From: an uncultured Candidatus Saccharibacteria bacterium
GTDB lineage: Bacteria; Patescibacteriota; UBA1384; DTJR01
DNA: 64,000 nt
Direction of reading: 5' to 3'
Assembly (NCBI GenBank): GCA_964487045.1
Contig: CAZAOT010000001.1
Location: forward strand, 4,875-68,874
Shown: positions 25,676-63,762 of the stretch, one piece after another
Numbering within the stretch: position 1 is the stretch's first letter
Layout of the letters: the number at the start of each line of letters is the position of its first letter
The notes under the pieces: model-generated
What the model saw: the letters and a program-made list of their open reading frames with translations, nothing else
What the model was told of the DNA's origin: nothing
Databases searched by the model: none
Program-made: the position numbers and the translations under genes

Positions 25676-25690
25676 TATCTCTCTATCTCA

Positions 25691-25734
25691 AAGGGGCGCA
25701 CTGTCATCCGACAGGGCGCCCCTTCTCTTTTTTG
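25691..25734 (+). terminator. intrinsic terminator
   Basis: AAGGGGCGC (25691-25699) pairs with GCGCCCCTT (25716-25724), followed by CTCTTTTTT. Confidence 0.75.
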
Positions 25735-25742
25735 TAAAAAAA

Positions 25743-26318: not shown

Positions 26319-26351
26319 TAACTTAATTATAGCACAGCGAGATTTTTTCGA

Positions 26352-26762: not shown

Positions 26763-26764
26763 CG

Positions 26765-27217: not shown

Positions 27218-27225
27218 ACTGCTCC

Positions 27226-27711: not shown

Positions 27712-27768
27712 AGTTTGATTTTACTCCTTAATCCAGTGTTTCGGCAAGGGTTATGTTAATTTTTCTTC

Positions 27769-27797
27769 TTGATTTGGCGCCTCGCTTGTACTATACT
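27769..27797 (+). promoter_or_regulatory. sigma70-type promoter of GC-rich island 2
   Basis: TTGATT (27769-27774), exactly 17 nt, then TATACT (27792-27797), about 70 nt upstream of the ATG at 27869. Confidence 0.6.
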
Positions 27798-27868
27798 CTG
27801 CGGATCTCAAGATTTCTCTTGAGTTGCGACGAAATAGTGAACATTGACATAGAAGGGAATGGTTACGA

Positions 27869-30804: not shown

Positions 30805-30822
30805 GCTATGCTCGGTCTTACA

Positions 30823-30860
30823 CGGGCTCCCGGAAGTTTTCCGGGAGCCCGTTTCTTTTT
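30823..30860 (+). terminator. intrinsic terminator (shared with convergent gene)
   Basis: CGGGCTCCCGG (30823-30833) pairs with CCGGGAGCCCG (30841-30851), followed by TTTCTTTTTT. Confidence 0.8.
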
Positions 30861-38244: not shown

Positions 38245-38321
38245 GCACCCGTAGCTCAGCTGGATAGAGCGTTGGCTTGCGGAGCCAAAGGTCGTAGGTT
38301 CGAATCCTATCGGGTGTACCA
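38245..38321 (+). tRNA. tRNA-Arg (anticodon GCG)
   Basis: 77 nt. Acceptor GCACCCG/CGGGTGT, D arm with A20, anticodon arm TTGGC-TTGCGGA-GCCAA, T arm GTAGG-TTCGAAT-CCTAT, encoded CCA. Its last 6 nt are also the first 6 nt of IR-A. Confidence 0.9.
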
Positions 38322-39776
38322 GTACGGAAATGTCAAATTTTGGGAGTTTGCGCCGCCTGCGGCGGCGACTAAATTGTAGGGAATTTTTGCTTCAAAATGC
38401 CACTTTCGATTCTGTAAGAAATGGTTCGAGCCGATATTTTTGAGAAATGTTAGAATTTCCGAATAATCTTCGGAATTTTTTAGTTTATCTGCTTTGGCAA
38501 GCGATAAAATGAACTCTTTGGCCGGTTCGAGCCAAGACAATCCTTTTTGTTCAAAATCTGTAATTTTTTCGTTAATCTCCAGCTTTTCGCTAAGTAGCTT
38601 TTGTTTTCGCAAAGTATATTCTTCGGTTGTAATGACTTCGCTCAGATATACATCGAGTAATTTTTCAAGCTGTTTCGTAATTTCTTCGAGCTTTACTTTG
38701 AGATTTTGAACAGAAGTTTTAGCCAACGTTCTTGCTTGAGTTTCTTGTTTCTCTAATTCAAACAAAACTTTTTTGGTATCTTGGCTCGACAAAGAAACTT
38801 TTTGTAAATACCCATTTATTTGCTCAACGAGTTTTTCTTCTCGCAGATAATGCTTTTCTTGGCAACCACTTTTCTTTTTTGTGCATCGGTAATAGTTGTG
38901 GCCTTTTTGTATTTCGGCAGTAATCGCACAGCCGCAACTTTTACATTTCATAAGCCCAAGAAAAGCAAAATGATGTTTTTCCTTTTTGCGAGGCTTGCCA
39001 CGATCTTTCAATACTTCTTGGCATTTATCAAAAAGTTTCTTTGGGATTATCGGTTTGTGTTTTCCTTCGTATATTTCGCCGTTATATTTCATTAGCCCAA
39101 TGTAGAAAATATTTTGTAGAATTGAATTGATATTGCTGATAGAAATCCTCTTGTTGAGATTCCCGAATAACATGTCATCTTCCGCCCAATTTGCGAGAGA
39201 ATTAAAGGTATATTTGCCGGTTGAATAGAGCTCAAAAAGCTTTCTGACTTTTCTAACCTTTATTTCGTCGACATCAATATTTCTTGTTCTCGGATTATTT
39301 ATATAGCCAACCGGCGCCCAGCCGGGCCAAACTCCATTTCGTATTTTTTGCCTTAACCCTCGTTTTACATTCTCTCGCAAATTGTCTACAAAATATTTTG
39401 ATTGACCAAAAGCAATGTTCAACATGAAAATCCCTTGAGGTGTTGGTTCAAACCAGAACGAAGGAAAACACAAGGATTTGATTTTCTGCCGGTCTATCAT
39501 GTGGATTATCTTTCCACCGTCTACACTATTTCTTGCTAACCTGTCAGGGTGCCAACTCAAAATCCCTTCCGCCTTTCCTTTTTCGATCAATTCTAACATT
39601 TCAGCGAACTTCGTTCGACCAGGTTCTTTGGCAGTTTTGGCTTCGCACAGCGAAGCGACAATTTCAAGTTTTTCTTTGGCGGCAAATTCCCGAAGCTCAA
39701 CTAGTTGAGCTTCAATCGAAAGAACTTGTCTGTCATCATCTTCAGTACTTTTGCGAGCGTAAATTATGTAGCGCAT
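38307..39776 (-). CDS. large serine recombinase (integrase)
   Basis: 489 aa from the ATG at 39776 (RBS AAAGGAGG).
- MRYIIYARKSTEDDDRQVLSIEAQ resolvase catalytic domain (Ser10).
- Recombinase domain, zinc ribbon CKSCGC...YYRC...C, and a coiled-coil.
- AT-rich.
- The last roughly 36 codons lie in IR-A, and the stop lies inside the tRNA. Confidence 0.9.
   Translation of the reverse strand: MRYIIYARKSTEDDDRQVLSIEAQLVELREFAAKEKLEIVASLCEAKTAKEPGRTKFAEMLELIEKGKAEGILSWHPDRLARNSVDGGKIIHMIDRQKIKSLCFPSFWFEPTPQGIFMLNIAFGQSKYFVDNLRENVKRGLRQKIRNGVWPGWAPVGYINNPRTRNIDVDEIKVRKVRKLFELYSTGKYTFNSLANWAEDDMLFGNLNKRISISNINSILQNIFYIGLMKYNGEIYEGKHKPIIPKKLFDKCQEVLKDRGKPRKKEKHHFAFLGLMKCKSCGCAITAEIQKGHNYYRCTKKKSGCQEKHYLREEKLVEQINGYLQKVSLSSQDTKKVLFELEKQETQARTLAKTSVQNLKVKLEEITKQLEKLLDVYLSEVITTEEYTLRKQKLLSEKLEINEKITDFEQKGLSWLEPAKEFILSLAKADKLKNSEDYSEILTFLKNIGSNHFLQNRKWHFEAKIPYNLVAAAGGANSQNLTFPYWYTR
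38316..38415 (+). repeat. IR-A, left copy (100 bp)
   Basis: Manual base-by-base comparison with the reverse complement of 39817-39916 gives 98/100 identical (mismatches at 38398 and 38407). Contains the palindrome CGCCGCCTGCGGCGGCG. Confidence 0.9.
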
Positions 39777-39816
39777 TTTCCTCCTTTTAATTTCATAAAA
39801 ATTTTCTTTTACAATC

Positions 39817-39916
39817 ACAGAATCAAAAGTGGCAATTTGAAGCAAAAATTCCCTACAATTTAGTCGCCGCCGCAGGCGGCGCAAACTCCCAAAATTTGAC
39901 ATTTCCGTACTGGTAC
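39817..39916 (-). repeat. IR-A, right copy (100 bp, inverted)
   Basis: Reverse complement of 38316-38415 with 2 mismatches. Lies upstream of the recombinase start. Its outer 7 nt (CTGGTAC) are shared with IR-B. Confidence 0.9.
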
Positions 39917-47495: not shown

Positions 47496-47524
47496 TTGAC
47501 TAATTATTACTCTTGAGCTATATT
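47496..47524 (+). promoter_or_regulatory. sigma70-type promoter of GC-rich island 7
   Basis: TTGACT (47496-47501), exactly 17 nt, then TATATT (47519-47524). Confidence 0.65.
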
Positions 47525-47575
47525 TTCAGGATTGAGTGCCCCTTATGGGGCCCAAAGGACATTGAGGTGATGGCG

Positions 47576-48730
47576 ATGCGAATCGGCATGTTCACTTTGA
47601 CTTATGGAAGGTCTAACGGCGTGGCCGTCTCCGTCGCCAATCTGAGCCGCGCGCTTCGCGAAGCCGGCCATGAAGTTCATATCTTCGGGCCAAGCGGTGT
47701 GGCGGATACAGACGAATTCTACCATCCGTTCGTGACGGTGCGATTTCCCCAGGCTCCGGACTATCCGGTGCCAATACCGAACTTCCTGCGTGCTCTCAAG
47801 ATAGCGCGTCGGTACAATCTTAAGCTTATGCACACTCACCATCCTTGGCTGCTCGGCAGTGATGCGGTGAGGGTGGCGCGCGAGCTGGAGGTGCCGGTAG
47901 TTTCCACGGTGCACACTCAGTATGATTTCTACTCCGAGCTTTTCCCGTGGATTCCGAGCAAATGGAAGCGCAAAGCGCTGCATTGGGTGCTCAGGCGTCA
48001 CCTCTGCAGTGTCGATCTGGTGACGACGCCGGGCATTGGTTCCAAGGCGCGCCTGGATGACATGCAGCTGACTACGCCGGTTCGTCTCGTCACCAACGGC
48101 ACCGACCTGTCGCTCTTCGGGTATGGCGGCGCCAACGAAATCAGACGCCAGCTCAGAATTCCGGAAGGCGCCCAGGTCTTCGGCTATGTTGGCCGGTTCG
48201 ATCCCGAAAAAGATCTCGGCACCCTGATCGATGCGGCGGCTAAAGTGTTCAAATGGCATCCGCGAGCCGTGCTGCTCATGGTCGGCGACGGTAAAGAGCG
48301 CGAATCGCTCGAGTGGAAATCCAAACCGCTCGGCAACCGAGTCATCTTCACCGGCCGAATTGCCCACGAGCAAATCGCGCCCTACTACAGCGCGATGGAT
48401 ATCTTCGTCACGCCGAGTAGGTTCGAGGTTCAGCCGATGACCATCGCCGAAGCGTTTGCCAGCGGTTTGCCGGTCGTTGCTTTGGATGTGCCTGGCAGCG
48501 AGATGGTCCATCACGGCTACAACGGCCTGCTCGTGGATCCAGCCCAACCGGTAAGCGCCCTGGCTCGAGGAGTCAGTCAGATCTTTAGCGACCCATTCCG
48601 ACATCTGACGCTACAGGGCCACGCCAGAGAGTCGGCGCGGCAGTACGAAACCGCCGAAGCTTTGTCACAGATGCTCAGTGCCTACCAAGACGCCGGCTAC
48701 TTCTGCCGCACTCGTCAGTCGTCCGTCTAA
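47576..48730 (+). CDS. GT4 glycosyltransferase, GC-rich copy (diacylglycerol glycosyltransferase-like branch)
   Basis: About 384 aa from MRIGMFTLTY (GAGGTG RBS; ATG at 47570 is an alternative start). Motifs NGVAVS, GHEVHIFGP, TVHTQYDFY, VDLVTTPG, EVQPMTIAEA. Resembles alMGS/CpoA-type GT4 (from memory). Confidence 0.8.
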   Translation: MRIGMFTLTYGRSNGVAVSVANLSRALREAGHEVHIFGPSGVADTDEFYHPFVTVRFPQAPDYPVPIPNFLRALKIARRYNLKLMHTHHPWLLGSDAVRVARELEVPVVSTVHTQYDFYSELFPWIPSKWKRKALHWVLRRHLCSVDLVTTPGIGSKARLDDMQLTTPVRLVTNGTDLSLFGYGGANEIRRQLRIPEGAQVFGYVGRFDPEKDLGTLIDAAAKVFKWHPRAVLLMVGDGKERESLEWKSKPLGNRVIFTGRIAHEQIAPYYSAMDIFVTPSRFEVQPMTIAEAFASGLPVVALDVPGSEMVHHGYNGLLVDPAQPVSALARGVSQIFSDPFRHLTLQGHARESARQYETAEALSQMLSAYQDAGYFCRTRQSSV

Positions 48731-48746
48731 CAAGTAATGGTTCCGT

Positions 48747-48778
48747 GGCCGGAGGTTCGCCTCCGGCCTGTTTTTTTT
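48747..48778 (+). terminator. intrinsic terminator
   Basis: GGCCGGAGG (48747-48755), loop TTCG, CCTCCGGCC (48760-48768), then TGTTTTTTTT. Confidence 0.85.
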
Positions 48779-48803
48779 GAAAAAAGGTTCTACAATTAGG
48801 GTG

Positions 48804-49958
48804 ATGAAGATCGCAATTTTTACTAATACCTATTGGCCAACTGTAAATGGCGTAGCTGTTTCGGCGACTAATTTGCGCGAAGGACTCATTCAGCTTGGAC
48901 ATGAGGTTTTTATCTTTGCGCCAGACGACGAAGATTTGAAGAAGTTGAAAGAACAGGCTAACGTTTATCGCTATCCATCTTTCAATATTAAAGAAATTGC
49001 TGATTATGAATTGGCGCTTCCGTCCTTGAAGATTAATGAAGTTTTAGATAAAAATTCCTTTGATATCGTGCACAGCGAACATCCGCTCTGGATAGGAAAG
49101 TGGGGGATGAATTATGCCAAAAAAACCAATACCCCGATTATTACAACCGTTCATACTCAGTACGATCTCTACGCCAAATTAATACCGCTACCCCAGGGAA
49201 TTTTGGTACCAATTTTACATAAAAATCTTAATCGATATTTAAATAATGTTGATTTAGTGACGACTCCAGGGGAGGGATCGAAGCAAAGGCTGATTGAGCA
49301 AGGAGTGAAGACGCCGATCAGGGTGGTTTCAAACGCGACCGATCTCAGTAGGTACTGGAAGGCCAAAGGAGATAAGGTACGCCGTGAGCTGACTAACAAT
49401 AATGAGAAATTGATTGGGTTTGTCGGGCGGCTATCGAAGGAAAAAGACGTTTCTGTCTTACTTGATGCAATGAATCTTATTTTAAATAAAATGCCTGATA
49501 GTAAGCTCATTTTGATTGGTGATGGTCCGGATAGAAAAGAGCTCGAGGAAAAAGCCAAAACTATTTCAAACAAAATTGTTTTTCTTGGCAAAATTGATCA
49601 TAAACAAATCCCTGATTATTATGCCTCCTTTGATATTTTTCTCTCGGCTAGCCAGTCGGAGGTTCAGCCAATGACTTTTGCCGAAGCGATGGCAACCGGT
49701 ACGCCGATTGTTGTTTTTAATGTTGCTGGTTGTAATGATATGGTGAAAAATCGCGAGAATGGACTATTGATTGACCCTAAAAAGGGCGCCCAGGGATTGG
49801 CAGATGCGGTGACAAAGATTTTAGTAAACGAAAAAGAGTTAAAAAAATTAAGCTCTCAGGCTAGAAAATGGGCCAGCCGCTATGATCTGATGACGGCGAC
49901 CAAAGATATGGTTGAAGCCTATGAGCAGGCAATCAAGATTCACTCAAACAAGAACTAA
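48804..49958 (+). CDS. GT4 glycosyltransferase, AT-rich copy (same subfamily as 47576-48730)
   Basis: About 384 aa from MKIAIFTNTY. Shares NGVAVS, GHEVFIFAP, TVHTQYDLY, VDLVTTPG and EVQPMTFAEA with the upstream GC-rich gene. Confidence 0.85.
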   Translation: MKIAIFTNTYWPTVNGVAVSATNLREGLIQLGHEVFIFAPDDEDLKKLKEQANVYRYPSFNIKEIADYELALPSLKINEVLDKNSFDIVHSEHPLWIGKWGMNYAKKTNTPIITTVHTQYDLYAKLIPLPQGILVPILHKNLNRYLNNVDLVTTPGEGSKQRLIEQGVKTPIRVVSNATDLSRYWKAKGDKVRRELTNNNEKLIGFVGRLSKEKDVSVLLDAMNLILNKMPDSKLILIGDGPDRKELEEKAKTISNKIVFLGKIDHKQIPDYYASFDIFLSASQSEVQPMTFAEAMATGTPIVVFNVAGCNDMVKNRENGLLIDPKKGAQGLADAVTKILVNEKELKKLSSQARKWASRYDLMTATKDMVEAYEQAIKIHSNKN

Positions 49959-52024: not shown

Positions 52025-52651
52025 GTGAGTAAATTAATCAAAAGAGCCCGCTTGGCCGGACAAGTTCTGAGATTTGTTCCTTTCTTAAGGATGGCAGCTC
52101 TTAACGGTTCAATTGTCCGCGGGGAAGAAAACAAACAAAGCGATATTGATATTTTAATTATCGCCTGTGCCGGCCGGCTTTATACCTGCCGCGCGTTTGC
52201 AAGTGCATTAATTCATCTAACTGGCTGGCGACGTCATGGCAAAAAAATTTCTGGCCGAATATGCCTCAATTGTTATCTTAGCGACCAGTATTTAGATATA
52301 TTTCCGGAGAATAAAACCTCCGCTTATAAAGTGGCGAAAGCCTATAAATCGTCAATTGCACTAGTAGATGAAGGGCTAGCCCAAAAATTCCAAATTGAGA
52401 ACTCTTGGTTTGAAAAGTTTGAAAAATCATCAAACACCCATACAAAACTTTTACAAGAAGCTTGTTTCATAGGATTTCCATTGAAGCCAAGTGCCAGACT
52501 GCTTGAAAAAATGTTGCTCGGTAAGGTCGGCAATTTTGTAGAGAGAAGGTTAATGCAATATCAACAAAGTCGTATTCTCAGAGGTAAGCGAAAAGGTGAC
52601 GAAATTTACGCAAGCGAAAAAGCGATCAAATTGCATCCAAAAAAGTACTAA
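52025..52651 (+). CDS. nucleotidyltransferase-domain protein (Pol-beta superfamily)
   Basis: 208 aa with a GTG start. GSIVRGEENKQSDIDILI (GS...DxD) motif. Confidence 0.7.
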   Translation: MSKLIKRARLAGQVLRFVPFLRMAALNGSIVRGEENKQSDIDILIIACAGRLYTCRAFASALIHLTGWRRHGKKISGRICLNCYLSDQYLDIFPENKTSAYKVAKAYKSSIALVDEGLAQKFQIENSWFEKFEKSSNTHTKLLQEACFIGFPLKPSARLLEKMLLGKVGNFVERRLMQYQQSRILRGKRKGDEIYASEKAIKLHPKKY

Positions 52652-52711
52652 ATTCAGCTTGTTTGCAATGTAGAAAAAAGGTATAATTTTAGGTGGATTA
52701 TAAGGAGGGAA

Positions 52712-55700
52712 TTGGTCCAAATACCAAAGATTTTTAGCAAATCCAAATTCTTCAGGTTTAGCGAGGTTAAAACTCGCCCGAATCTTGTTATCAAATTTGG
52801 CAAGATAGAAAAAACGGCTGAAGAAAATGCTAAAAAACCTTCTAATTGGTTGATAGTTCTAACGCTAGTTGCAATTGTCATCGTTCAGTCATATTATCCG
52901 TCTGTTCAGACCAAGGCTTCGGGACAGACTTCGATTTCAAAAACTAGCACTTCTGATTGGGCTAAAGGAACTAATTCCGGAGTTAGTACTAGCTCGGATG
53001 AGGTCAAGATCTCTTCTGTGGATGGTTGGGCTAGTGATAACTACGCCTATCGTAAACAATTGACAGTTTCTGCTCAAGCATCTAATACTGTCACAAAAGG
53101 TCATACCTTAAATGCTGCTGGAGTTGGAAGCGGAACTTTTGATGGTAGCGGTGATTATTTTGATCTGGGCGATAATTATAATTCAACTGCATTGCCTGTA
53201 ACGGTTGAAGCCTGGGTCAAGATTACCGGTTCTGCTCCTGGTAGTGCGGGCTGGATGATTTTTGATTCTGATTCAAGCCCAACTTTCTATTATGGTTTTT
53301 GGATGTATGTGGATGTAAATAGAAATGTTTTTTTAAGTTATGGCGATGGTGGAGGTCAGCTATCTACAAATCGTCGCTCTAAAGTTTCTACCGGGACAGT
53401 ATCTCTTGATACTTGGACTCATGTAACTGGAGTGATTCGAGGTGCGACGGATATGTCGATTTATCTAAATGGTGTAGATGCAGGCGGATCTTACTCTGGG
53501 ACGACGAACAATGCTATGGCTCATTCTGTGGATAAAGCTAGGATTGGCTATCGTAATGTTGCAGTTAACCCAATGATGCGAGGAAATATTGACGATCTCA
53601 GAGTTTGGACAAAAGCTCGAACGACCACTGAAGTTACGGCTGATATGAACAAGGAGATATCTGCCCAGGCTAATTTGGAAGGTTATTATAAATTTAATCA
53701 GTCATCTGGAACTTTAGCCGATGATTCTGGTCATAATATCACTGGTACTGCGACTGGAGACGCAGGTTATTCACCATATTCATACGTTTGGGGTGGTATT
53801 GATACAAAGTCTCTAGTTGACGCAGGTAAGATGCGTTCGGACGGGAATGATTTGAGGGTATATTATGGTTCAAATGAAATTGAAAGGGAGTTAGTTCCAG
53901 CGAATGGAAAAACCCTGGCTACATCAGAGGCGACGCAGGTTTTGTTTAAAGCTCAGGCCCAGGTTGCAGGCGGAGCGACGGATAACGGATATTACTTGTA
54001 TTATGGTGATTCAGACGCTACTGATCCAATTGCGAATGTTTATGAAAAGAAGATGCGGGTTAAGAATGCCTATATCAACCCATCCGATGGAGACTCAACG
54101 GCGAACTCTTTGCAGTATAGCGCTGATAATTTTCCAACCGGCGGGGATGGTACTCTCGAACTGTGGTACAAATGGTCGAATCCGGTTTCTAAGTCGTGGG
54201 CAGGACCAATATTTACCGGCAACGACGATAACTCCTGGAGTATCTTCTATGGCAGATCGGGTTATAGGGTGAGATATGGCATTGGTAGTAGCCTTGTTGA
54301 ACCGTCAGGTAGCAATAATGAAGGAGGCGATTGGAACCATGTAGTACTCACATGGCATAACACGGACACCAATTCACAAATTAGAATCTACGAAAATAAT
54401 GCTTTAACACTTTCCAATGATGCTGGAACCAAAATCACAAAATGGCCCGATTATCTAAGGCTTCAAGATCCCCGAGCAGGGTTTGATGGCATAGAGATTG
54501 GTTTGTTTGACATTTATAACACTGCTAAAGATGCAGCATGGGTGTCGAGCCAATACTCAAGGACAACGGCCGTTCCATATGCAGCCGGCAGAGATACCGC
54601 TGCAACTTTTATACACAACTTTGACGGATCCACGTTTGATGCAACGGAAGCCAATGGGGGTTATGCTTTGGGAACCGCAACAGCTACGGCAACAAATGTA
54701 GCAATGAGTGGAGACTATCGAATGGGCGATACCTACGATGAAAGAGCCAATAATTCTTGGGTTAGCGGCGTTTACTATTGGTATGACGATTTTGCCGGCA
54801 ACGGAACGAAGTCGACGCCATGGAGAGAGATTGGAAAAATAAACACCGTTTCGGATGCTACGGTCTTAGGAAATGACCAGCATCTACTTATGAATAAAAA
54901 TAACATTCCAAGCAGCGTCAGAGTGGAAGCCGAAGCCAAAGGTACTGGACCGAAATTTATTTTCAACGACAGCGGTGCCTTTAACACTAACTTTTGCGGC
55001 GATCAGATGACTAGAGATGTCTATCCCGGCGATAGTGTATGGTGGCCAAGGGGTGCGGCGAGCACTTTTATCAGCGCGACTAATCAAAGTTTCATCTTGC
55101 AAAAACGTGATTATATTACTAACGGCAAGAGGATGTATATCGATATTGTAACTCCCGGGAGCTATAGTGGGCTAACCTATGAATACTGGAATGGAACGGC
55201 CTGGACATCTTTTACTCCAACCGATACAACTGCTGGGTTCACTAAAAGCGGTTATATCGATTTCTCGAATATTTATGATTCTCTAAGCGGTAGCAACCCA
55301 CCCACCGTGGGTACTTGTAACTTTTCGGGTCAAACGTATAACCGATTTATTAAAATTACTGCCACGTCAGTTACTACTGCGGCTACTTATAATATTATCT
55401 ACAATCAGTCAGATCATGCCGAAAATTTATTTACTAATGTGTCAAATGCGTTATCCGGTGATCTTCATAGTGCAACTGGTTCGACTACTATCACTCGAAA
55501 TACTAGTGCGTACAAAACAATCGGCATGTCAAAAACGTCAAACACTATCACAAGCTACATGGACGGCTATCAGACCTTTACCTCGACCGCTTCAGGTGGA
55601 GCTTGGGATAATGCGATGATTGGCCTTTCGGCCACGACTGATGCAACTTACGATAGTTTTAAAGCTTACAAAACATTAACTAGTGAACCTTCGACCGCTC

Positions 55701-58615
55701 AGGCTTCCGAGGCTCCTAAATATATAACTGGTTCGTATTATTCATCACCAACTTCTACAGCGGCTGATTCAGGAATTATTAATCTCGGTTGGATAGGAGA
55801 TTGGGGAACTCCAACCGGCTTTTCGGCAAATGTTACTATTCCGACCAATACCTCAATTGAATTCAAGGTCCGTTCTTCTTCGGTAGCCGGGTCAAATGAT
55901 GCTGACTGGACTGATTGGGCGACGATCGGCTCAGCCACAACGACTGGTGAATATAGTGTAGCTCATGCTTCGATGCCAAATATTACTTTGGGCTTGAATA
56001 AATATTTACAAATTAAGGCCACTTTAAACACTACTGACGGAGCTAGTACGCCTATTTTGAGCGACTATACTATATATTATGTTGCTGATACGGATGCTCC
56101 AACTAATCCTTCCGTTAGCTCTCTTACAGTCAATGGAACGTCAATTACTGCTTCTAACTGGACAAGCGTAAATGGAGCGGTTTTGGCGCAATTCTCTGGA
56201 GCAACGGACGCCGACGACCAATCTGGAGTAGCAGGATATTATATATATTTTGGAACGTCCTCTTCGGCTGATCCAGCTGCAAGCGGAGCATACCAAGCTC
56301 ATGTTGGAGCTGTTGGTGATACTCAAAGCTATGCTTCAACAATTACTACATCAGACGATGGAAAATATTACTATCTAATCTATAAAACCAAGGATGGCGC
56401 TGGTAACACTTCAAATGCGTCGACTTTGTATCAATTTGGCTATGATAAAACTAGTCCGATCAAGCCATCATTTGTCTCGGTTTCACCACTTGGATACACA
56501 ACGTCAAATTCGTTCACTTTTACCTGGCCAGCCGCCTCTGACCCAGATGGAGCAAATGGATCTTCAGGGATTAAATATTACGAATATCGTCGTGGCAATG
56601 AAGCCAACTGGTCGCATACGCTAAATAGCAGCCAGACCTCGGTTGCTTCACTTCAAGCTTATCAGGAAGGAGCGAACGCTTTTTATGTGAGGACGGTCGA
56701 TAGAGCTGATAATATCTCCTCTTCATACTCTCAAGTTACATATTATTGGTCAGGAACTGCTCCTGATAAGCCTGTAAATTTATCGGTTAGTCCCGATACA
56801 GCTGATGAAAATAATTTCGTAATATCTTGGGATAAGCCAACTGTTACAGAGGGGAATCCTCCAGTTGCTGGCTATTACTATTCCATCAATGCTTCTCCGA
56901 CGCTAAACAATATTACTTATATTGCTTCGACTGCAAGCCACGTCGAGCTCCCTGCTTCTAGCTATGCTACTAAGCAAGGGGCCAACATAGTTTATGTATT
57001 ATCCGTTAATGAAGCGGGTAACTTCTCGCTAGAGGAAGCATACATCGCCCAGGCAACTTTTAATTGTCAGACCGCTGCTCCGCCAATTCCGGTATCAGTT
57101 TCTATATCAGATACTACCAACCGCGCATATAATATTTATTCTCTCACTACAAAATGGTCGGCTGGAACTGGCCAAAATCAAACAAGTTTTGATCATTATA
57201 CTATTGAGAGATCAACTGACGCGGTAAATTATTCTGAACTTGCTACTACTACTTCTACAGCGTACATCGATGCTTCAAGTTTAAACAATTCAACAACATA
57301 CTACTATCGTATCAAAGCAGTTGATGATGCTGGCTCGACTTCGGCGGTTTCAACTGTGGTCTTTAAAACTCCGACCGGCAAATATCAGACCCCGCCCAAC
57401 TATCTTTCAAACCCTCAAACTTCAAATATTAAATCTTCTTCGGCCACTATTTCTTGGGCCACAGACCGAGTTTCAAATTCAATTGTAAAGTACGGAAAGA
57501 CTCAGTCGAGCCTAAGTGCTTCTAGCGGACAGCTTGACTCGGTTCTAAATCACGTAGTAGAGCTGCTTGGTCTTGAGCCATCTACTACTTATTATTATCA
57601 AGCTCAGTCGCTGGACAACGAAAGAGATTATCAATCTGACGAAGCTAATAGCGAGATGCAATCATTTACGACCTTGGCGGCGCCTGCAATATCAAATGTA
57701 AATGTATCAAATGTCACACTTTCTTCTGCTGATGTAACTTGGGAAACAACGACTCTTGCTGTTAGCTCGCTTAATTATGGTAATAATTCTAATCTTGATA
57801 AAACGCTTGATGATATTTCGGGATCAAATACTACCAAACACTCGGTTAAGCTTACCGATCTAGGGCATTCAACGCGTTATGGTTTTAGAATTTCCGGAAC
57901 AGATGCAGATAATAATGAACTCACTTCAGACCTTTATTATTTTGAGACACTACCAATGCCTCGAGTTGAAAATTTGAAATTAGAAATCGTGAAGGATAAA
58001 TCTAGGCCAGCCATCAAGGTTAATTGGAATACGAATGTTGCTACTTCTAGCATTGTTAAATATTCTGGATCAGAAGAAACACCAAAAGAAGAAGTGAAGG
58101 CCAAATTAGTCACAGAGCATGAAGTATTGCTTGAAAATCTTTCAGACGAAACTAGCTATAAAGTATCGGTATCAGGAATGGACTCGATCGGTAATTTGAC
58201 CGAAGCTTCATCGGCTTCGATTTTGACTCCGCAGGACTCAAGGCCTCCACAGATTTCTGATATTTCGATTGAAACTTCTAACGTTGGGCTAAACCGTCAG
58301 GATAAGGCTCAAGTCGTAGTTTCCTGGAGGACTGATGAACCGGCCACCAGTCGCGTCGAATATGGAGTTGGGCTAAGTGGTGACAATTATGAGAAGCAAA
58401 CCAGTGAAGATGCCAACCTAACAACAAATCATGTTGTGATCTTATCCGACCTCGAGCCAACCTCGCCATATCATCTAAAGGTTAATTCAAAAGATAAGGC
58501 GGGAAATACTTCAAAAAGTGACGATCAAGTAATTGTCTCTAGCGAAGTACCAAGATCGGTCTTGAGAGTTTTGCTAAACGCCTTAGAAGGAATATTTGGA
58601 TGGATAAAGATATGA
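52712..58615 (+). CDS. giant membrane-anchored surface protein (LamG/DUF2341-like N-terminal half, fibronectin-III-like repeats)
   Basis: 1967 aa. TTG start after AAGGAGGG. N-terminal signal-anchor (WLIVLTLVAIVIVQ). LamG-type IDDLRVW motif. The C-terminal roughly 950 aa are paralogous to the next gene. Confidence 0.85.
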   Translation: MVQIPKIFSKSKFFRFSEVKTRPNLVIKFGKIEKTAEENAKKPSNWLIVLTLVAIVIVQSYYPSVQTKASGQTSISKTSTSDWAKGTNSGVSTSSDEVKISSVDGWASDNYAYRKQLTVSAQASNTVTKGHTLNAAGVGSGTFDGSGDYFDLGDNYNSTALPVTVEAWVKITGSAPGSAGWMIFDSDSSPTFYYGFWMYVDVNRNVFLSYGDGGGQLSTNRRSKVSTGTVSLDTWTHVTGVIRGATDMSIYLNGVDAGGSYSGTTNNAMAHSVDKARIGYRNVAVNPMMRGNIDDLRVWTKARTTTEVTADMNKEISAQANLEGYYKFNQSSGTLADDSGHNITGTATGDAGYSPYSYVWGGIDTKSLVDAGKMRSDGNDLRVYYGSNEIERELVPANGKTLATSEATQVLFKAQAQVAGGATDNGYYLYYGDSDATDPIANVYEKKMRVKNAYINPSDGDSTANSLQYSADNFPTGGDGTLELWYKWSNPVSKSWAGPIFTGNDDNSWSIFYGRSGYRVRYGIGSSLVEPSGSNNEGGDWNHVVLTWHNTDTNSQIRIYENNALTLSNDAGTKITKWPDYLRLQDPRAGFDGIEIGLFDIYNTAKDAAWVSSQYSRTTAVPYAAGRDTAATFIHNFDGSTFDATEANGGYALGTATATATNVAMSGDYRMGDTYDERANNSWVSGVYYWYDDFAGNGTKSTPWREIGKINTVSDATVLGNDQHLLMNKNNIPSSVRVEAEAKGTGPKFIFNDSGAFNTNFCGDQMTRDVYPGDSVWWPRGAASTFISATNQSFILQKRDYITNGKRMYIDIVTPGSYSGLTYEYWNGTAWTSFTPTDTTAGFTKSGYIDFSNIYDSLSGSNPPTVGTCNFSGQTYNRFIKITATSVTTAATYNIIYNQSDHAENLFTNVSNALSGDLHSATGSTTITRNTSAYKTIGMSKTSNTITSYMDGYQTFTSTASGGAWDNAMIGLSATTDATYDSFKAYKTLTSEPSTAQASEAPKYITGSYYSSPTSTAADSGIINLGWIGDWGTPTGFSANVTIPTNTSIEFKVRSSSVAGSNDADWTDWATIGSATTTGEYSVAHASMPNITLGLNKYLQIKATLNTTDGASTPILSDYTIYYVADTDAPTNPSVSSLTVNGTSITASNWTSVNGAVLAQFSGATDADDQSGVAGYYIYFGTSSSADPAASGAYQAHVGAVGDTQSYASTITTSDDGKYYYLIYKTKDGAGNTSNASTLYQFGYDKTSPIKPSFVSVSPLGYTTSNSFTFTWPAASDPDGANGSSGIKYYEYRRGNEANWSHTLNSSQTSVASLQAYQEGANAFYVRTVDRADNISSSYSQVTYYWSGTAPDKPVNLSVSPDTADENNFVISWDKPTVTEGNPPVAGYYYSINASPTLNNITYIASTASHVELPASSYATKQGANIVYVLSVNEAGNFSLEEAYIAQATFNCQTAAPPIPVSVSISDTTNRAYNIYSLTTKWSAGTGQNQTSFDHYTIERSTDAVNYSELATTTSTAYIDASSLNNSTTYYYRIKAVDDAGSTSAVSTVVFKTPTGKYQTPPNYLSNPQTSNIKSSSATISWATDRVSNSIVKYGKTQSSLSASSGQLDSVLNHVVELLGLEPSTTYYYQAQSLDNERDYQSDEANSEMQSFTTLAAPAISNVNVSNVTLSSADVTWETTTLAVSSLNYGNNSNLDKTLDDISGSNTTKHSVKLTDLGHSTRYGFRISGTDADNNELTSDLYYFETLPMPRVENLKLEIVKDKSRPAIKVNWNTNVATSSIVKYSGSEETPKEEVKAKLVTEHEVLLENLSDETSYKVSVSGMDSIGNLTEASSASILTPQDSRPPQISDISIETSNVGLNRQDKAQVVVSWRTDEPATSRVEYGVGLSGDNYEKQTSEDANLTTNHVVILSDLEPTSPYHLKVNSKDKAGNTSKSDDQVIVSSEVPRSVLRVLLNALEGIFGWIKI

Positions 58616-61600
58616 GATACATAGCAAAAATTAAAAATCATTTATTGTTTGCCCTTATCTCCATAATGATCTTATCTGTTGTTGTGATTTCGCCGTGGCA
58701 CAAGCCATCTGTTGCGAGAGCGTCCTGGTATCCTGACGCTGCATGGCAATATCGTCAACAGATTGTAATCGATCATACAAAGGTTGCTGCCGATCAATCT
58801 GATTTTCCGGTAATGCTTAAAATTACCAGTCAGTACAATCCAGTTTTTGCTTCAGCCAAAGACGACGGAACTGATATTTTATTCACCTCAAGTGACGGCG
58901 CCACAAAACTATCTCATGAGATTGAAACTTTCTCTAAAACATCAAAAGAACTTTGGGCATGGGTTAAAATTCCTACATTATCATCGAGTAATGATGTGAC
59001 ACTTTATATGTACTACGGCAATGCAGACGCTACGAACCAACAAAATAATAATGACGTATGGTCCAACAATTATTCGGCTGTTTGGCATTTAGGTGAAGCG
59101 AGTGGCAATTCGTTAGATTCCACATCGAGTGGTATTAGTGGAACGATTGGCACTGGGGTGACCCAAAATGTTTCAAATAAGCTAGCTCGATATTATTCTT
59201 TGGCTGGAGCTGGTTCGGTCAATTATGGAAATTCTAGCGCTCTGCCAAATGGTACTTCAGCAAAAACGCTTTGCGGATGGGGAAGGTCTAATAGTGTAGC
59301 TGTAGGCTATCGCTGGATGGCGGCATATGGAACTGGTGCAACTAACCAAGCACTATTTATCGGGATGAATGGTACTACAGCTTATGGAGGAGGGTATGGT
59401 AACGATCTAACTTCGTCGAATTTTTGGTCTGCAGGTGAATGGAAATATCTGTGTGTAACTTATGACGGGACACAAGGAGCTTTGTACGGCAATGGATCGC
59501 AGCTAGTGGCGCCAACCACAAAACCTTGGAGCTTAGTCAGAAATCAGACATATCTTGGTCAGCAAGTGGGTGCAACTGAATACTGGAATGGAGATCTCGA
59601 TCAGGTTACAATCTCATCAACCGCCAGATCTTCAACATGGATTCAGACGGAATACAATAACCAGAATGATCCCGGAAGTTTTGCTACTTTTTACTGGGAA
59701 AAAAATCAGAACAATTATAATCAGACAACGGAAAGTGATTGGCTTTCATCGAACTGGCTTTATAGACAAAAAATTCAGGTCACAAACAATACCGCTTCGG
59801 CGCTTACAGATTATCAAGTTCTAATTGATAGCGGGTCGTTGAACTTATCTAACGTATTTAGCAAGGCAAATTCGGATGGTTCGGATATAAGATTTGGAAA
59901 TAATTCATCTAGTGAAGAGCTTAATTATTATATGCAATCTTATTCTAAGGTTTCTGGTACGGCTAAAATTTGGGTTAAAATACCTTATTTGCCGGCTAGC
60001 GGGAGCGGATATATTTACCTATATTATGGAAATTCTGGCGCTGCTTCACTTTCAAATTTGACAAATGTCAATTCCTCTACTGAAACTAAAATTAGCATTG
60101 GCTTAACAGCAAATGCTACTTCTTATTTTTCATCCTACGTGCCAGCTAACACTATCGACGGCAATACATCTTCAACTTTTTGGCATGGTAATAATGATGG
60201 TCAGCTGCATAATTTATGGGTTTCGGGGATATCTAATAAAATTTTATCGTCTGTTAAGGTTTATCATTACGCTGGACAGTGGGCTTCAACATTCAAAATT
60301 CAGGGATCAAATGATAATTTTGCTTCAGATATTCGGGAATTTGCCAGTGTTACCTCACCAACTCAAAATATGACTTTCTCTAATATTAATGATTCTGCAT
60401 CTTCGGTAAGATATCAAACCCTTACAACTACAAACTGGTATAATCCTACAATTTATGAAATTGAGATTTATACCAAATTTAAAACTGCCTCTAGCGAGCC
60501 AACCTTAATTTTGAGTGGGAGTGAGGTAGCCTTTGATTCCGATATTCCAAGCAATCCATCATCATTTGTCGGAAAAAATATCTCTGGGGGAGCAATAACA
60601 CTTGATCCAACCGCATATTATAATTACACCACGCCAGAAATCTCCTGGCCTACAGTTGGTTCAGCGGGAGGAGCCAGTGACTCAACTACCGGTGTCGACG
60701 GTTATTATATGTATTTTGGGACCAGTTGCGGCGGCGGAGGTGCTGATCCAGCACTGACCAGAGGGCTACTTAGTGACACGGGCTCGGGTCTTCATTACTC
60801 GGCAGCAGTTTCTATATCTGCTCCGACATTATCGACTGATGGAACTTATTGTCTGCGTCTAAAAACTAAAGATGTTGCAGGCAATATTTCTAGTGCTGTT
60901 GAGGCGTTTGTGTATAAGTTTGATGCCTCATCGCCTTCACAGCCAACATATATAGCCGCGAATCCCGCCGGATATACTTCAACCAATTCCTTTTCGTTCT
61001 CCTGGCCAGCCGCTTCCGATACAGGCGGTTCACTTTTTGCAGGGTATCAGTATAAGCGAGGTGGTAGCTCAGGGGACGGTTGGTCATCGACAATTACTCA
61101 AACCAGTGTATCGGGAATTCAATCTTATCAGACAGGTGAAAATATTTTCTTGGTCAGGGCTATTGATAACGCTCAAAATGTTTCAAGCGAGACCCAAACA
61201 AATTACTATTATTCTTCGAACGCTCCAACCAAGCCGACTAGTTTCTCGGCTTCTCCTGAAATATCTGCAACTAACAACTTTTCCTTTAGCTGGACAGCTC
61301 CAGTGCATGACATAGAAATTGATGAGTATGGCTATTCTATAAATGCCGCGCCAACGATGCAAAATATTACTTGGACAGGCTCAAATTCAACTTCAATTGC
61401 GGCCGGGCCATTTGCCACCAAGCAGGGCGTCAATACTATTTATCTTGTTGCCAAAGATGCTGCGGGTAACTACGCTTTTGATCAGGCTAATTATGCTACA
61501 GCGAATTTCGATTGTCAGACTTCCGCCCCGCCAACTCCAGTGGCCGTATCAGCGGTTGACTCCTCGGATAGATCAATTAGCAGATGGATGATCACAACTC

Positions 61601-63063
61601 AGTGGGCAACTGGCACTGGCCAAGACAGCGCCACATTCCATCATTATTCAGTCGAGCGCTCGACAGATAATGCTACATTTACCGAACTTGCTACTACCAC
61701 ATCAACTGCCTACATCGATGCTGATCTATCAAATACTTCCGCGTATTACTATCGAATAAAGTCTGTTGATAATGCTGGATCCAGTTCGGTTGCTTCGACG
61801 ACAGTTTCGAAAACTCCTACCGGGAACTATCCCACGCCTCCAACGATAGTGTCTGAGCCAACTTCAGTTGTTAAAGCGACTTCAGCGACAGTGACTTGGG
61901 TCACAAATAGAGCTTCAACTGGTGCGGTTAAATTTGGCACATCGGAAAGTGATATGGATCGAAGTCAGCTTGATGCGGAGGAGAGGACGGAGCATCAGAT
62001 CACTCTTCCCGGCTTAGAGCCAAATACGACCTATTATTTCAAGGTTCAATCGCTTGATAGTGCTAGGGACTATTCTGATTCCGAAGCATATTCTTCGATT
62101 TTTACGCTAAAGACACTTGCCTCCCCAGGAATTCAAAACGTAAAAATTACCAATATTAGCTTAGATTCGGCTGATATTTCCTGGGAGACTTCGTCCGCTT
62201 CTACAACCTTGATCAGATATGGGACAACGATCAATTATGATAAGTCGTGGGAAGACGCATCCTCATATACGACTAATCACACATTTAAACTTCAGGACTT
62301 AAATCATACGAGCACATATCACTTTAAAATCAGTGGCCTAGATGCTGATGAGAATAGTATCAATTCAGATGACTATGTTTTTGATACTCTACCATTACCG
62401 AAGATCTCCGCGGTTTCTTTTGACACTGACTATTCGGATGCTGAGCCCCAAACATCAATTAGTTGGACGACCAATGTTGCGACAACTTCCTCGGTTGAAT
62501 ATTTTCCAAAAAGCGGAGGCAATGTCGCTTACGAAGAAAGCCAATCAGACCTGATCACTACTCACAAGGTTAAGCTTACAAAGCTTTCCGACAATACGTC
62601 TTATAGTTTTTATGTTTCTGGAACGGATCAATTTGGAAATAAGGCTACTTCAGATGAATATATCTTTAATACCCCGTTTGACTCAAGGCCGGCCCGAATC
62701 ACCGATGTCCAGGTAGAAACTTCAAATGTCGGATTAGATAAACAGGATAAGGCTCAAATCATTGTGTCGTGGAAGACTGACGAGCCGGCTACGACTCAAG
62801 TCGAATACGGCAAAGGTGTAAGCGGTGATTATACAAATAAGACCAGCGAAGATAAAACTCTCACTAATGAGCATTTTGTTATACTCTCAGATCTCGAACC
62901 AAACCAACCATATCATTTACGGGTAATTTCCAAGGACAAGGGTGGTAACGAATCAATCGGAGAGGATACAAACTCCATTCCTGGAGAAGTACCACGATCC
63001 ATGCTGCAGGTCATATTCTCAACTTTTGAAAAAGTGTTTGGTTGGTTGGAAAAATTAGTATAG
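58600..63063 (+). CDS. giant membrane-anchored surface protein, paralog (DUF2341/LamG, discoidin-like, FN3-like repeats)
   Basis: 1487 aa. The start is 58600, or 58612 (ATGA overlap with the upstream stop). TM anchor LLFALISIMILSVVVI. NTIDGNTSSTFWHG is discoidin-like. The C-terminal half is collinear with the upstream protein. Confidence 0.85.
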   Translation: MDKDMRYIAKIKNHLLFALISIMILSVVVISPWHKPSVARASWYPDAAWQYRQQIVIDHTKVAADQSDFPVMLKITSQYNPVFASAKDDGTDILFTSSDGATKLSHEIETFSKTSKELWAWVKIPTLSSSNDVTLYMYYGNADATNQQNNNDVWSNNYSAVWHLGEASGNSLDSTSSGISGTIGTGVTQNVSNKLARYYSLAGAGSVNYGNSSALPNGTSAKTLCGWGRSNSVAVGYRWMAAYGTGATNQALFIGMNGTTAYGGGYGNDLTSSNFWSAGEWKYLCVTYDGTQGALYGNGSQLVAPTTKPWSLVRNQTYLGQQVGATEYWNGDLDQVTISSTARSSTWIQTEYNNQNDPGSFATFYWEKNQNNYNQTTESDWLSSNWLYRQKIQVTNNTASALTDYQVLIDSGSLNLSNVFSKANSDGSDIRFGNNSSSEELNYYMQSYSKVSGTAKIWVKIPYLPASGSGYIYLYYGNSGAASLSNLTNVNSSTETKISIGLTANATSYFSSYVPANTIDGNTSSTFWHGNNDGQLHNLWVSGISNKILSSVKVYHYAGQWASTFKIQGSNDNFASDIREFASVTSPTQNMTFSNINDSASSVRYQTLTTTNWYNPTIYEIEIYTKFKTASSEPTLILSGSEVAFDSDIPSNPSSFVGKNISGGAITLDPTAYYNYTTPEISWPTVGSAGGASDSTTGVDGYYMYFGTSCGGGGADPALTRGLLSDTGSGLHYSAAVSISAPTLSTDGTYCLRLKTKDVAGNISSAVEAFVYKFDASSPSQPTYIAANPAGYTSTNSFSFSWPAASDTGGSLFAGYQYKRGGSSGDGWSSTITQTSVSGIQSYQTGENIFLVRAIDNAQNVSSETQTNYYYSSNAPTKPTSFSASPEISATNNFSFSWTAPVHDIEIDEYGYSINAAPTMQNITWTGSNSTSIAAGPFATKQGVNTIYLVAKDAAGNYAFDQANYATANFDCQTSAPPTPVAVSAVDSSDRSISRWMITTQWATGTGQDSATFHHYSVERSTDNATFTELATTTSTAYIDADLSNTSAYYYRIKSVDNAGSSSVASTTVSKTPTGNYPTPPTIVSEPTSVVKATSATVTWVTNRASTGAVKFGTSESDMDRSQLDAEERTEHQITLPGLEPNTTYYFKVQSLDSARDYSDSEAYSSIFTLKTLASPGIQNVKITNISLDSADISWETSSASTTLIRYGTTINYDKSWEDASSYTTNHTFKLQDLNHTSTYHFKISGLDADENSINSDDYVFDTLPLPKISAVSFDTDYSDAEPQTSISWTTNVATTSSVEYFPKSGGNVAYEESQSDLITTHKVKLTKLSDNTSYSFYVSGTDQFGNKATSDEYIFNTPFDSRPARITDVQVETSNVGLDKQDKAQIIVSWKTDEPATTQVEYGKGVSGDYTNKTSEDKTLTNEHFVILSDLEPNQPYHLRVISKDKGGNESIGEDTNSIPGEVPRSMLQVIFSTFEKVFGWLEKLV

Positions 63064-63072
63064 ACTATTCGC

Positions 63073-63762
63073 ATGGCAGATCTAGCAAAAAAAATACTTG
63101 AAAGTATAAAAGCTGGCTTGGGTTTGATAGGAAAGTATCTTTTAATGGTAATTATAATTGCCAGAAATTTTATCACTCGTAAACGAAGACTTTATGCAAA
63201 CCCGGTATTTTATATTGCTCTTATTGGTGCTTTTTGTGCTGGAGTCTATTTAAGACAACCTGCTCAGAATATAATGTCGAAAAATTCTAAGTCAAAAGAA
63301 AAGACGCAGGTAGCTAAAGTTGTTGAAACTGATTTTTATACTGGTTGGGAAAAATATGAAGATCAGTTGGGATATACGATTCGCTACCCGAAAGATTGGC
63401 AATTTAAAAAAGAAGATGAGCTGTCTAGGTCGTTGTGTAAAGATGAATATTGTCTGTATTTTGCGATGAATAAACAAGGGAGTGGGGAATTAAAAATTTT
63501 CCAGCGCTACGACAAAGAGAAGCCAACAGACTCTGGATACTTAAAAATAGGGGAAGAAAAGCTTAAAAAGCAGAAATATCTAGTTGGCGAGAAAGCAAAA
63601 GAATATTATTATCCAAAAACAGTTCAAAATGTTAAAAATTTTCAAATTATTGCCAGTTTTGCTTATAAAAACAAAAAAGTTGAAGAAGCGAGCGTAGATA
63701 TGGAAACGCTTGATTCAAGAGCGATTGCAGAAAAAATCTTGCAATCAATCGAGCTAAAGTAG
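63073..63762 (+). CDS. hypothetical membrane-anchored protein
   Basis: 229 aa with two N-terminal hydrophobic segments. Lies 10 nt downstream of the giant gene. Confidence 0.65.
   Translation: MADLAKKILESIKAGLGLIGKYLLMVIIIARNFITRKRRLYANPVFYIALIGAFCAGVYLRQPAQNIMSKNSKSKEKTQVAKVVETDFYTGWEKYEDQLGYTIRYPKDWQFKKEDELSRSLCKDEYCLYFAMNKQGSGELKIFQRYDKEKPTDSGYLKIGEEKLKKQKYLVGEKAKEYYYPKTVQNVKNFQIIASFAYKNKKVEEASVDMETLDSRAIAEKILQSIELK

Follow-up and report, generated by a model that had tools for sequence, protein, structure and literature searches.

A tandem pair of giant genes

We analyzed a stretch of 64,000 nucleotides (nt) of contig CAZAOT010000001.1 from an uncultured Candidatus Saccharibacteria bacterium (hereafter, the window), in which two tandem genes, P1 and P2, encode giant proteins with the marks of export. 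Gene P1 (52712..58615, + strand) begins with TTG and encodes a P1-type protein of 1967 amino acids (aa). Gene P2 (58600..63063, + strand, as are all features of the pair given below) encodes a P2-type protein of 1487 aa if read from the ATG at 58600, or of 1483 aa if read from a conserved ATG at 58612. Both open reading frames (ORFs) are intact and together cover 10,352 of the 64,000 nt, or 16.2% of the window. An initial annotation had described two tandem ORFs of 1967 and 1487 aa that take up 16 percent of the window; the ORF list and the translations agree with it in coordinates and strand, and all of the peptides quoted there are present in the translations of P1 and P2. Identical proteins exist in the database (P0001 for P1 and P0028 for P2). 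The closest homologues among species-representative genomes come from Berkelbacteria and Patescibacteria metagenome-assembled genomes (MAGs), in line with the earlier assignment of the organism to the Patescibacteria, also called the candidate phyla radiation (CPR).

The TTG start of P1 is preceded by a Shine-Dalgarno sequence (AAGGAGG, 52702-52708), and the N-terminal peptide VRIPKIF.KSK is kept in the orthologues. Therefore, this start is credible. At the junction of the two genes, the ATGA start/stop overlap reported earlier at 58612-58615 can be read in the sequence, and the same 4-nt overlap occurs in loci L002, L003 and L004. Since gene 2 begins at this overlap in the orthologous loci L003 and L004, the conserved start of P2 is the ATG at 58612 (1483 aa); in L004, a stop codon lies in that frame just upstream of the gene 2 start. 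The ATG at 58600 has a better Shine-Dalgarno sequence (AAGGA, 8 nt upstream) and corresponds to the NCBI call (P0028). The choice between the two affects only 4 residues.

Full-length orthologues of P1 show 72-77% identity, and those of P2 include P0029 (69%) and P0030 (78% over the stalk, described below). The tandem order, P1-type and then P2-type, is kept in L002-L006 and L008, with a 9-nt gap instead of the overlap in L005. Because L002-L005 all retain the pair, and three of these four related loci also share the ATGA overlap, P1 and P2 are probably co-expressed, as the overlap had been taken to indicate. A scan for promoters and terminators gave nothing convincing between P1 and P2, and terminator-like sites were not enriched (13 found against 10.8 expected).

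A shared stalk and tail with differing heads

BLASTP aligned residues 1099-1966 of P1 with residues 621-1484 of P2 at 45% identity over 884 collinear residues (E = 0). The C-terminal halves had been described as collinear, paralogous blocks of roughly 950 aa; the paralogy and collinearity stand, but the length is ~870 aa. The N-terminal halves do not align, except for a weak DUF2341-like stretch (E = 0.012). An AlphaFold2 model of the shared module, based on a 44-sequence alignment, reached a mean predicted local distance difference test score (pLDDT) of 86.7 and consisted of eight beta-sandwich domains followed by a C-terminal helix. The stalk of P1 thus comprises eight consecutive fibronectin type III (FN3)/Ig-like domains by AlphaFold2, Pfam and Foldseek (aa 1134-1944; 56111..58543), and the eight FN3/Ig-like domains of the P2 stalk (60565..62982) are positionally equivalent to them in the collinear BLASTP alignment and in a domain matrix. 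The last four domains are of the Pur_ac_phosph_N type. Pfam matches exceed the gathering scores both for this family (PF16656: 68.1 and 66.9 bits, gathering score 30) and for fn3 (PF00041: 55.4 and 63.6 bits, gathering score 25). A Foldseek search of the stalk model against the PDB returned only generic FN3/Ig chains (titin/MyBP-C, gp130 and contactin). The FN3-like character recognized in the initial annotation is therefore retained, but what it called repeats is a fixed eight-domain module with a tail rather than a generic repeat array.

Similarity limited to generic FN3 repeats had been named as the outcome that would speak against paralogy. We calculated a Smith-Waterman matrix between the eight domains of the P1 stalk and the eight of the P2 stalk, in which the diagonal scores were 123-322 and the off-diagonal scores 23-145. 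Because the diagonal dominates, each stalk domain has a specific positional counterpart in the other protein, and generic FN3 repeats are ruled out as the source of the similarity.

The stalk is followed in both proteins by a conserved amphipathic C-terminal tail, SSEVPRSVLRVLLNALEGIFGWIKI in P1 (58544..58612) and GEVPRSMLQVIFSTFEKVFGWLEKLV in P2 (62983..63060). It is free of gaps in 44 aligned members and in 81 complete module ORFs of L006-L083. Every complete member ends, without gaps, in the motif S-[VAI]-[LF]-x-[LIV]-[IVL]-[ILV]-x-x-[LF]-x-x-x-F-G-[WF]-[LI] and a further 1-10 residues, with the consensus S-V-L-x-V-L-L-x-x-L-x-x-x-F-G-W-I. The instances in P1 and P2 are RSVLRVLLNALEGIFGWIKI and RSMLQVIFSTFEKVFGWLEKLV, respectively, both within 10 residues of the C-terminus. 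For the pattern scan, the 31-sequence alignment was too divergent and another alignment was used instead. As a helix, the tail is amphipathic, with a hydrophobic moment of 0.47-0.60 across P1 and P2 (0.60 in P1). Because it contains conserved charged or polar positions, it is not a transmembrane segment, and hydropathy analysis gave no C-terminal transmembrane segment in either protein. None of the Pfam and NCBIfam models covers the tail. No LPXTG motif lies near either C-terminal end (the sole LPxxG is at aa 464 of P2), and no RTX repeat arrays were found in P1 or P2.

Next, we considered the age of the duplication. Across the aligned codons of the stalk, nucleotide identity is 54% overall and 36.8% at third positions, a value that we regard as near saturation. 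A neighbour-joining tree of the module places the P1-type and P2-type proteins of different genomes in two separate clades. This separation indicates that the duplication predates the sampled lineages and that gene conversion has not occurred. In addition, no long DNA repeats are shared between the copies; the single match between the paralogues is 55 nt at 71%, which rules out recent gene conversion as the cause of their similarity. A diversity-generating retroelement was also considered as a cause of head variability and was rejected, as the window contains no template/variable-type or long repeats. Taken together, these comparisons of sequence show that P1 and P2 are ancient paralogues of a modular family distributed across the Patescibacteria.

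The collinear module is present in at least 507 loci confirmed by tblastn in GTDB species-representative genomes. Of the best 80 of these loci, most align with almost all of the 871-aa query at 33-64% identity, and the titles are mostly Berkelbacteria (the closest), Saccharibacteria, Roizman-, Woese-, Shapiro-, Levyi- and Moranii-bacteria, WWE3 and Patescibacteria group. A hidden Markov model (HMM) of the module scored 1390 bits for P1 and 1369 bits for P2. The heads placed on the module differ within the family: they are of DUF2341/LamG or Kelch type, and glycine-rich repeat regions were seen by eye in P0012 and P0014. The DUF2341-LamG-DUF2341 head of P2 has hundreds of homologues annotated as 'DUF2341 domain-containing protein'. 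A minority of the third-party MAGs that carry the module (L015, L033, L034, L036, L041-L046 and others) are titled uncultured Gammaproteobacteria, Pseudomonadales or Bdellovibrionales. The layouts of the loci titled Gammaproteobacteria or Pseudomonadales are nearly superimposable on those of Roizman-, Woese- and Levyi-bacteria, all CPR, and judging from such gene layouts these MAGs are probably mislabelled Patescibacteria bins. Two loci (L026 and L028) contain three module genes in tandem, and in L039 the 3' end of one unit of module, ABC and FtsX genes is followed directly by a second, complete unit; these arrangements point to repeated local duplication of the module system.

The head of P2 contains two DUF2341 domains, DUF2341 domain 1 at 58780..59082 (132.6 bits with a custom HMM) and DUF2341 domain 2 at 59785..60099 (102.4 bits; best Pfam stretch, 426-490). 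Both match Pfam PF10102, for which P2 scores 93.6 bits in two copies against a gathering score of 23.4. Between them lies a LamG domain (59215..59664), which matches Pfam Laminin_G_3 (PF13385) at 43.6 bits against a gathering score of 27.6. The LamG region is hypervariable: at aa 200-300, P2 and its orthologues are only 19-26% identical, against 70-90% in their stalks. The second DUF2341 domain is followed by a discoidin-like (F5/8 type C-like) domain at 60148..60474, where aa 517-597 match F5_F8_type_C_2 (PF22633) at 24.0 bits (E = 6.1e-5). The discoidin-like block proposed earlier is thus a candidate only, with a score below the gathering score of 27.8. The orthologue P0029 has a weak precomputed PF00754 match, and in the orthologue P0030 this domain is swapped for another.

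The head of P1 is organized differently. Its first LamG/concanavalin-like domain (~aa 145-310; 53144..53641) scores 74.2 bits with Laminin_G_3 when searched as a segment alone (E = 1.6e-20), also above the gathering score, and 63.8 bits with a custom LamG HMM. The custom DUF2341 and LamG HMMs were built from fetched homologues with the P1-type proteins left out, and the DUF2341 model was derived from P2-type domains. The second LamG-like domain (~aa 470-615; 54119..54556) has no Pfam match, scores 31.8 bits with the custom LamG HMM (E = 5e-11) and is also present in the orthologues. Between the two lies the segment that aligned weakly with the DUF2341 domain of P2 (~aa 362-451; 53795..54064). 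It scores 12.8 bits with the custom DUF2341 HMM (aa 371-439), has no Pfam match to PF10102 even at E <= 1 and scores 17.8 bits in the orthologue P0002. By these scores, it is a degenerate remnant of DUF2341. The earlier placement of DUF2341 and LamG modules in both N-terminal halves thus holds for both modules in P2 and for LamG in P1, but only a remnant of DUF2341 is left in P1; the lectin-like character assigned to the heads agrees with the LamG and DUF2341 matches.

The LamG-like domains of P1 are followed by a lineage-specific region (~aa 620-1000; 54569..55711) without a Pfam match. An exhaustive HMMER search among 1.84 billion representatives found full-length matches to 3 clusters only, and a word-indexed homologue search with aa 611-1010 returned nothing, P1 itself included. 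Within this region, a short sub-motif that contains YSGLTYEYWNGTAWTSFTPTDTTAGFTKSGYIDF (aa ~806-910; 55127-55441) recurs in segments of further proteins, including three (P0151, P0153 and P0158) with a Baseplate_J-like domain, a domain found in phage and contractile-injection baseplates. A beta-rich domain (~aa 1005-1130; 55724..56101) then stands ahead of the collinear block. It is defined by a motif common to P0005, P0035, P0041 and P0060, SP.S....SG.I...W.G.WG.P.GF.A...IP...SI.F..R.S....... Beyond the N-terminal 100 aa, the P1 orthologues P0002-P0004 show 54-90% identity per 100-aa window, mostly 70-88%. For the P1 head (aa 66-1135), AlphaFold2 with a 6-sequence alignment gave an unusable model with a mean pLDDT of 41. 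A sequence search of solved structures with the P1 and P2 heads gave no matches, and Pfam and NCBIfam scans of P1 and P2 gave no glycoside-hydrolase family and no catalytic domain (CHAP, LytM, NlpC or other hydrolase).

Transporter genes in related loci and the surroundings of the pair

We also examined the genes that follow the module gene in related loci. HMMs for an ATP-binding cassette (ABC) ATPase and an FtsX-like permease were made from the two genes 3' of the module gene in L003-L005, and all fetched loci were scanned with them. Of the 71 loci with at least 2.5 kb of downstream sequence, 63 carry an ABC ATPase and a MacB_PCD/FtsX permease downstream of the module gene, or of the last gene of a tandem array, on the same strand. 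The gap between module gene and transporter is at most 300 nt in 56 of these 63 loci (median ~3 nt). As a control, ABC/FtsX genes were found upstream of the module gene in only 1 of 54 loci. The linked loci include the close orthologous L003 and L004 and some from Saccharimonadia; examples of the transporter genes are at 20328-22221 in L004, 12625-15583 in L035 and 12624-15533 in L071. The linked ATPase is closest to LolD, FtsE and MacB, and the permease, which occurs in two forms of ~400 aa and ~700 aa, is closest to MacB and LolC/E. These proteins nevertheless score far below the equivalog cut-offs for FtsE, FtsX, LolCDE and MacB.

This linkage, which formed no part of the initial annotation, is a property of the relatives and is not seen in the window itself. 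The transporter that would belong to P1 and P2 may lie beyond the window, may be encoded elsewhere in the genome or may have been lost. Where relatives have their ABC ATPase and permease genes, the window contains a gene for a 229-aa membrane protein (63073..63762, +) with a hydrophobic N-terminal segment by eye and no Pfam or NCBIfam match. Its homologues are found after FtsX in L005, where one is annotated as PsbP_2-like, and after the P2-type gene in L009, a Berkelbacteria locus that is also without the transporter.

Directly 5' of P1 lies a gene for a 208-aa protein with a nucleotidyltransferase domain (NTP_transf_2, weakly MntA/HalB-like; 52025-52651, +), which is found in the same place in L001-L004. 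Further upstream are two genes for GT4-family glycosyltransferases (47513-49958, +), and the same two are upstream in the orthologous locus L002. The Ser+Thr content of P1 and P2 is 24-25%. From gene content and composition, glycosylation of P1 and P2 is conceivable. Elsewhere in the window, a gene for a large serine recombinase (38307-39902, - strand; Resolvase, Recombinase and Zn_ribbon_recom) overlaps the 3' end of a tRNA-Arg(GCG) gene (38245-38321, +) by ~15 nt, and this overlap (38245-39902) may mark an integrated element. At 24000-31000, the G+C content is raised to 0.47-0.56 against ~0.40 elsewhere, with a 2-kb break at 0.40 (26001-28000). This region is not rRNA and includes a 589-aa ORF with an N-terminal PlsY-like acyltransferase domain and a GpsA-like dehydrogenase.

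Probable export, proposed tethering and possible role of the giant proteins

The initial annotation had both proteins start with a signal-anchor helix. Hydropathy analysis shows a single hydrophobic segment in each protein, at the N-terminus, whose core measures 13 residues in P1 and 16 in P2. The P1 segment forms part of a putative extended signal peptide (aa 1-69; 52712..52918) with a conserved, basic n-region of 44 aa and a predicted cleavage between VQTKA and SGQTSISKTSTSDW. In P2, the putative signal peptide (58600..58722) has a predicted cleavage between VARA and SWYP, after aa 41 of the 1487-aa form. We inspected the N-termini of 37 family members, 35 of which have an identifiable hydrophobic core. 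In all 35, a small-x-small motif stands 5-15 residues past the core, directly before the first conserved mature motif. The small residues at -3 and -1 correspond to T-K-A before S in P1 and A-R-A before S in P2; every P2-type homologue inspected keeps A-x-A followed by (A/S)WY, in a strikingly regular pattern of A-x-A before AWY. The -3/-1 rule is the signature of signal peptidase I. Based on the short cores and the small-x-small site in 35 of 35 members, we regard cleavable signal peptides as more likely than signal anchors, so that of the earlier claim the single N-terminal helix stands and its role as an anchor is improbable. If the signal peptide is cleaved, then the likely topology is reversed, and the protein would be kept on the cell by its conserved C-terminus instead of the N-terminus. 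Other family members also have long, conserved, basic extensions before the core (P0047, P0049, P0055, P0060, P0064, P0078 and P0101). The P1-type extension (aa 1-44; 52712-52843) contains VRIPKIF.KSK, and other clades have the His/Trp-rich (W/F)Y..W(H/W)...Y(H/R).H(I/V)H.

We therefore propose, with reasonable though far from complete confidence, that P1 and P2 are Sec-exported fibres that are held at the cell by their C-terminal end and display lectin-like heads made of jelly-roll domains. The proteins would be exported from N to C through Sec and the signal peptide would then be removed. The conserved C-terminal end would keep the protein on the cell, with the helix in the outer leaflet. 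A more specific alternative is that the helix binds a dedicated MacB/FtsX-type ABC complex at its extracytoplasmic domain, analogous to the way in which Sec-secreted PcsB or EnvC is held and driven by FtsEX. At 3.5-4 nm per FN3/Ig-like domain, the stalk would measure ~30 nm if extended, and it would project the variable head by about that distance from the membrane to bind glycans of another cell or surface. The paralogues would then be two different heads on one chassis, made together from overlapping genes, and the ABC partner, which is not beside the pair here, would be encoded elsewhere or have been lost. What we infer in all this is that the signal peptides are cleaved, that the C-terminal end acts as the tether, that the heads bind glycans and that the proteins serve in host attachment, the role for which the pair had first been put forward.

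Several points weigh against this proposal. Cleavage is deduced from the -3/-1 pattern only, and the 44-aa basic N-terminal extension of P1 is unusual for a signal peptide. The tail helix of P1 (1950-1966) was modelled by AlphaFold2 with low confidence (pLDDT 41-56). Tails of the FGF type occur with the long permease (38 vs 3) and those of the GW type with the short one, which is consistent with co-evolution of tail and permease but is confounded by phylogeny. An HMM scan found no ABC or FtsX homologue in the 64-kb window, which ends 937 nt after P2, so that an ABC tether partner is no more than a candidate in this genome. Furthermore, lectin-type folds do not prove glycan binding.

The main rival is that the N-terminal helices remain as uncleaved signal anchors. 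In that case, the heads would be at the membrane, the stalk and tail would point outward, and the helix would oligomerize or bind a partner. This arrangement would account for the single hydrophobic helix that follows basic residues in each protein and for the long, conserved, cytoplasmic-looking N-terminal extension of P1. The hydrophobic residues of the tail are also spaced in a heptad-like manner (3, 6/7, 10, 13/14, 17) that would suit a coiled coil. On the other hand, hydrophobic cores of only 13-16 residues and the cleavage-like site in all 35 members argue against an anchor. Moreover, fast-evolving, exchangeable heads at the membrane with an invariant part at the tip would be the reverse of usual adhesins, and the invariant end is the part that is genetically linked to a membrane complex. 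Therefore, we consider uncleaved anchors unlikely, although they deserve more weight than the remaining alternatives.

The second alternative is that the proteins serve the maintenance of the envelope or cell wall, as an extracellular partner regulated in an FtsEX-like manner or as an S-layer-like fibre, with no host contact. The module is near-universal in Patescibacteria, its gene is closely linked to those for a LolD/FtsE-like ATPase and a MacB/FtsX-like permease, and the known FtsEX partners are Sec-secreted proteins held by FtsX. In addition, the P1 orthologues evolve evenly, in the range of identity given above for the part past aa 100, and are without a hypervariable head. However, a catalytic domain (hydrolase, CHAP, LytM or other) was not detected in P1 or P2, and the heads are of lectin type and highly variable in the family, in which Kelch and glycine-rich repeats also occur. 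From its divergence among orthologues, the hypervariable LamG domain of P2 fits the recognition of an external ligand better than a housekeeping task. We thus rate envelope maintenance as rather improbable.

Release of the proteins as polysaccharide-binding or -degrading factors for nutrient scavenging would agree with the membership of LamG_3 in the concanavalin A-like lectin/glucanase superfamily, with the likely cleavage of the signal peptides and with the lack of a C-terminal LPXTG or transmembrane anchor, but it is very hard to reconcile with the lack of any glycoside-hydrolase family match, with an 810-aa stalk and a strictly conserved tail helix that have no obvious use in a soluble enzyme, and with the coupling of the module gene to a membrane ABC complex in relatives, so that we give it hardly any credence.

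Among known systems, the proposed C-terminal tether resembles that of the secreted partners of FtsEX, namely PcsB, EnvC, RipC and CwlO. In the relatives, the gene for the giant protein is followed directly by genes for a LolD/FtsE-like ATPase and a MacB_PCD/FtsX permease, and P1 and P2 appear to be Sec-exported, probably with a cleaved signal peptide and with no membrane anchor of their own. However, by Pfam, NCBIfam and AlphaFold2, P1 and P2 are without the hydrolase domain or long coiled coil of those partners, and the candidate docking element predicted here is instead a C-terminal helix of ~20 residues. The family proteins are also giants of ~1500-4000 aa with lectin heads, the relatives' ABC proteins fall short of the FtsEX equivalogs, as noted above, and the window has no ABC genes. 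Mechanotransmission by type VII, or MacB-superfamily, ABC systems was reportedly described by Crow et al. in 2017 and by Greene et al. in 2018. It is possible, although we hold this only tentatively, that the stalk and tail are the cell-proximal adaptor of an undescribed machine found across the Patescibacteria, in which a fibre with exchangeable lectin, Kelch or glycine-rich heads docks on a MacB/FtsX-type (type VII, mechanotransmitting) ABC complex. If this speculation is true, then the ABC complex would hold the fibre and possibly actuate or release it with ATP, as an adhesin analogue of FtsEX-PcsB, and P1 and P2 would serve as two alternative fibres, their ABC partner having been relocated or lost.

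The layout of an N-terminal binding region followed by a long Ig/FN3-like stalk is shared with sortase-anchored adhesins of the type known as microbial surface components recognizing adhesive matrix molecules (MSCRAMM) and with the RTX adhesins of the type I secretion system (T1SS), such as LapA and SiiE. The RTX adhesins also adjoin an ABC transporter, like the module genes of the relatives. In contrast to the sortase-anchored adhesins, P1 and P2 do not have a C-terminal LPXTG and transmembrane sorting signal. They also differ from the T1SS adhesins in that they have no RTX arrays and carry the N-terminal Sec signal that T1SS substrates lack, and the transporter linked in the relatives is of the MacB/FtsX type and not of the HlyB type. 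The Pam pili of the CPR bacterium Ca. Mycosynbacter amalyticus are built from pilins of 39-55 kDa that polymerize by donor-strand exchange (bioRxiv 10.64898/2026.03.03.709456). They resemble the proposed fibres as CPR-specific extracellular appendages of Ig-like folds that are implicated in host contact. However, the Pam pilins are small and unrelated, whereas P1 and P2 are predicted as single chains of 160-210 kDa.

Giant proteins with DUF2341, concanavalin-like and FN3 domains have been noted repeatedly in Patescibacteria genomes and are presumed to be adhesins (PMC11809585, PMC13059738, PMC10633639). P1 and P2 share with them the large size, the signal peptide or transmembrane segment and these three kinds of domain. 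The published accounts go no further than domain lists, whereas here we describe a fixed stalk, a tail helix, two clades and an ABC linkage. In the literature library that we consulted, which was incomplete, we came across generic mentions of giant DUF2341/FN3 proteins only; the fixed stalk module, its C-terminal helix, the separate P1-type and P2-type clades and the linkage to a transporter were not among the things described. The pair itself is genuine yet not very unusual in a CPR genome, and the features of the family are the less known part.

For the window alone, the result is thus a modest one, namely two real, ancient paralogues of this family without an adjacent transporter. A large part of bacterial diversity belongs to the Patescibacteria, which presumably live attached to other cells. 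Of their contact molecules, type IV pili and the Pam pili, reported recently, are the only ones known to us. One invariant chassis combined with rapidly changing lectin-type heads is the expected look of a device for recognizing a host or substrate. In addition, the tail helix together with the almost obligatory MacB/FtsX-type transporter offers a testable hypothesis for how such proteins may be held on a cell without an outer membrane or sortase motifs.

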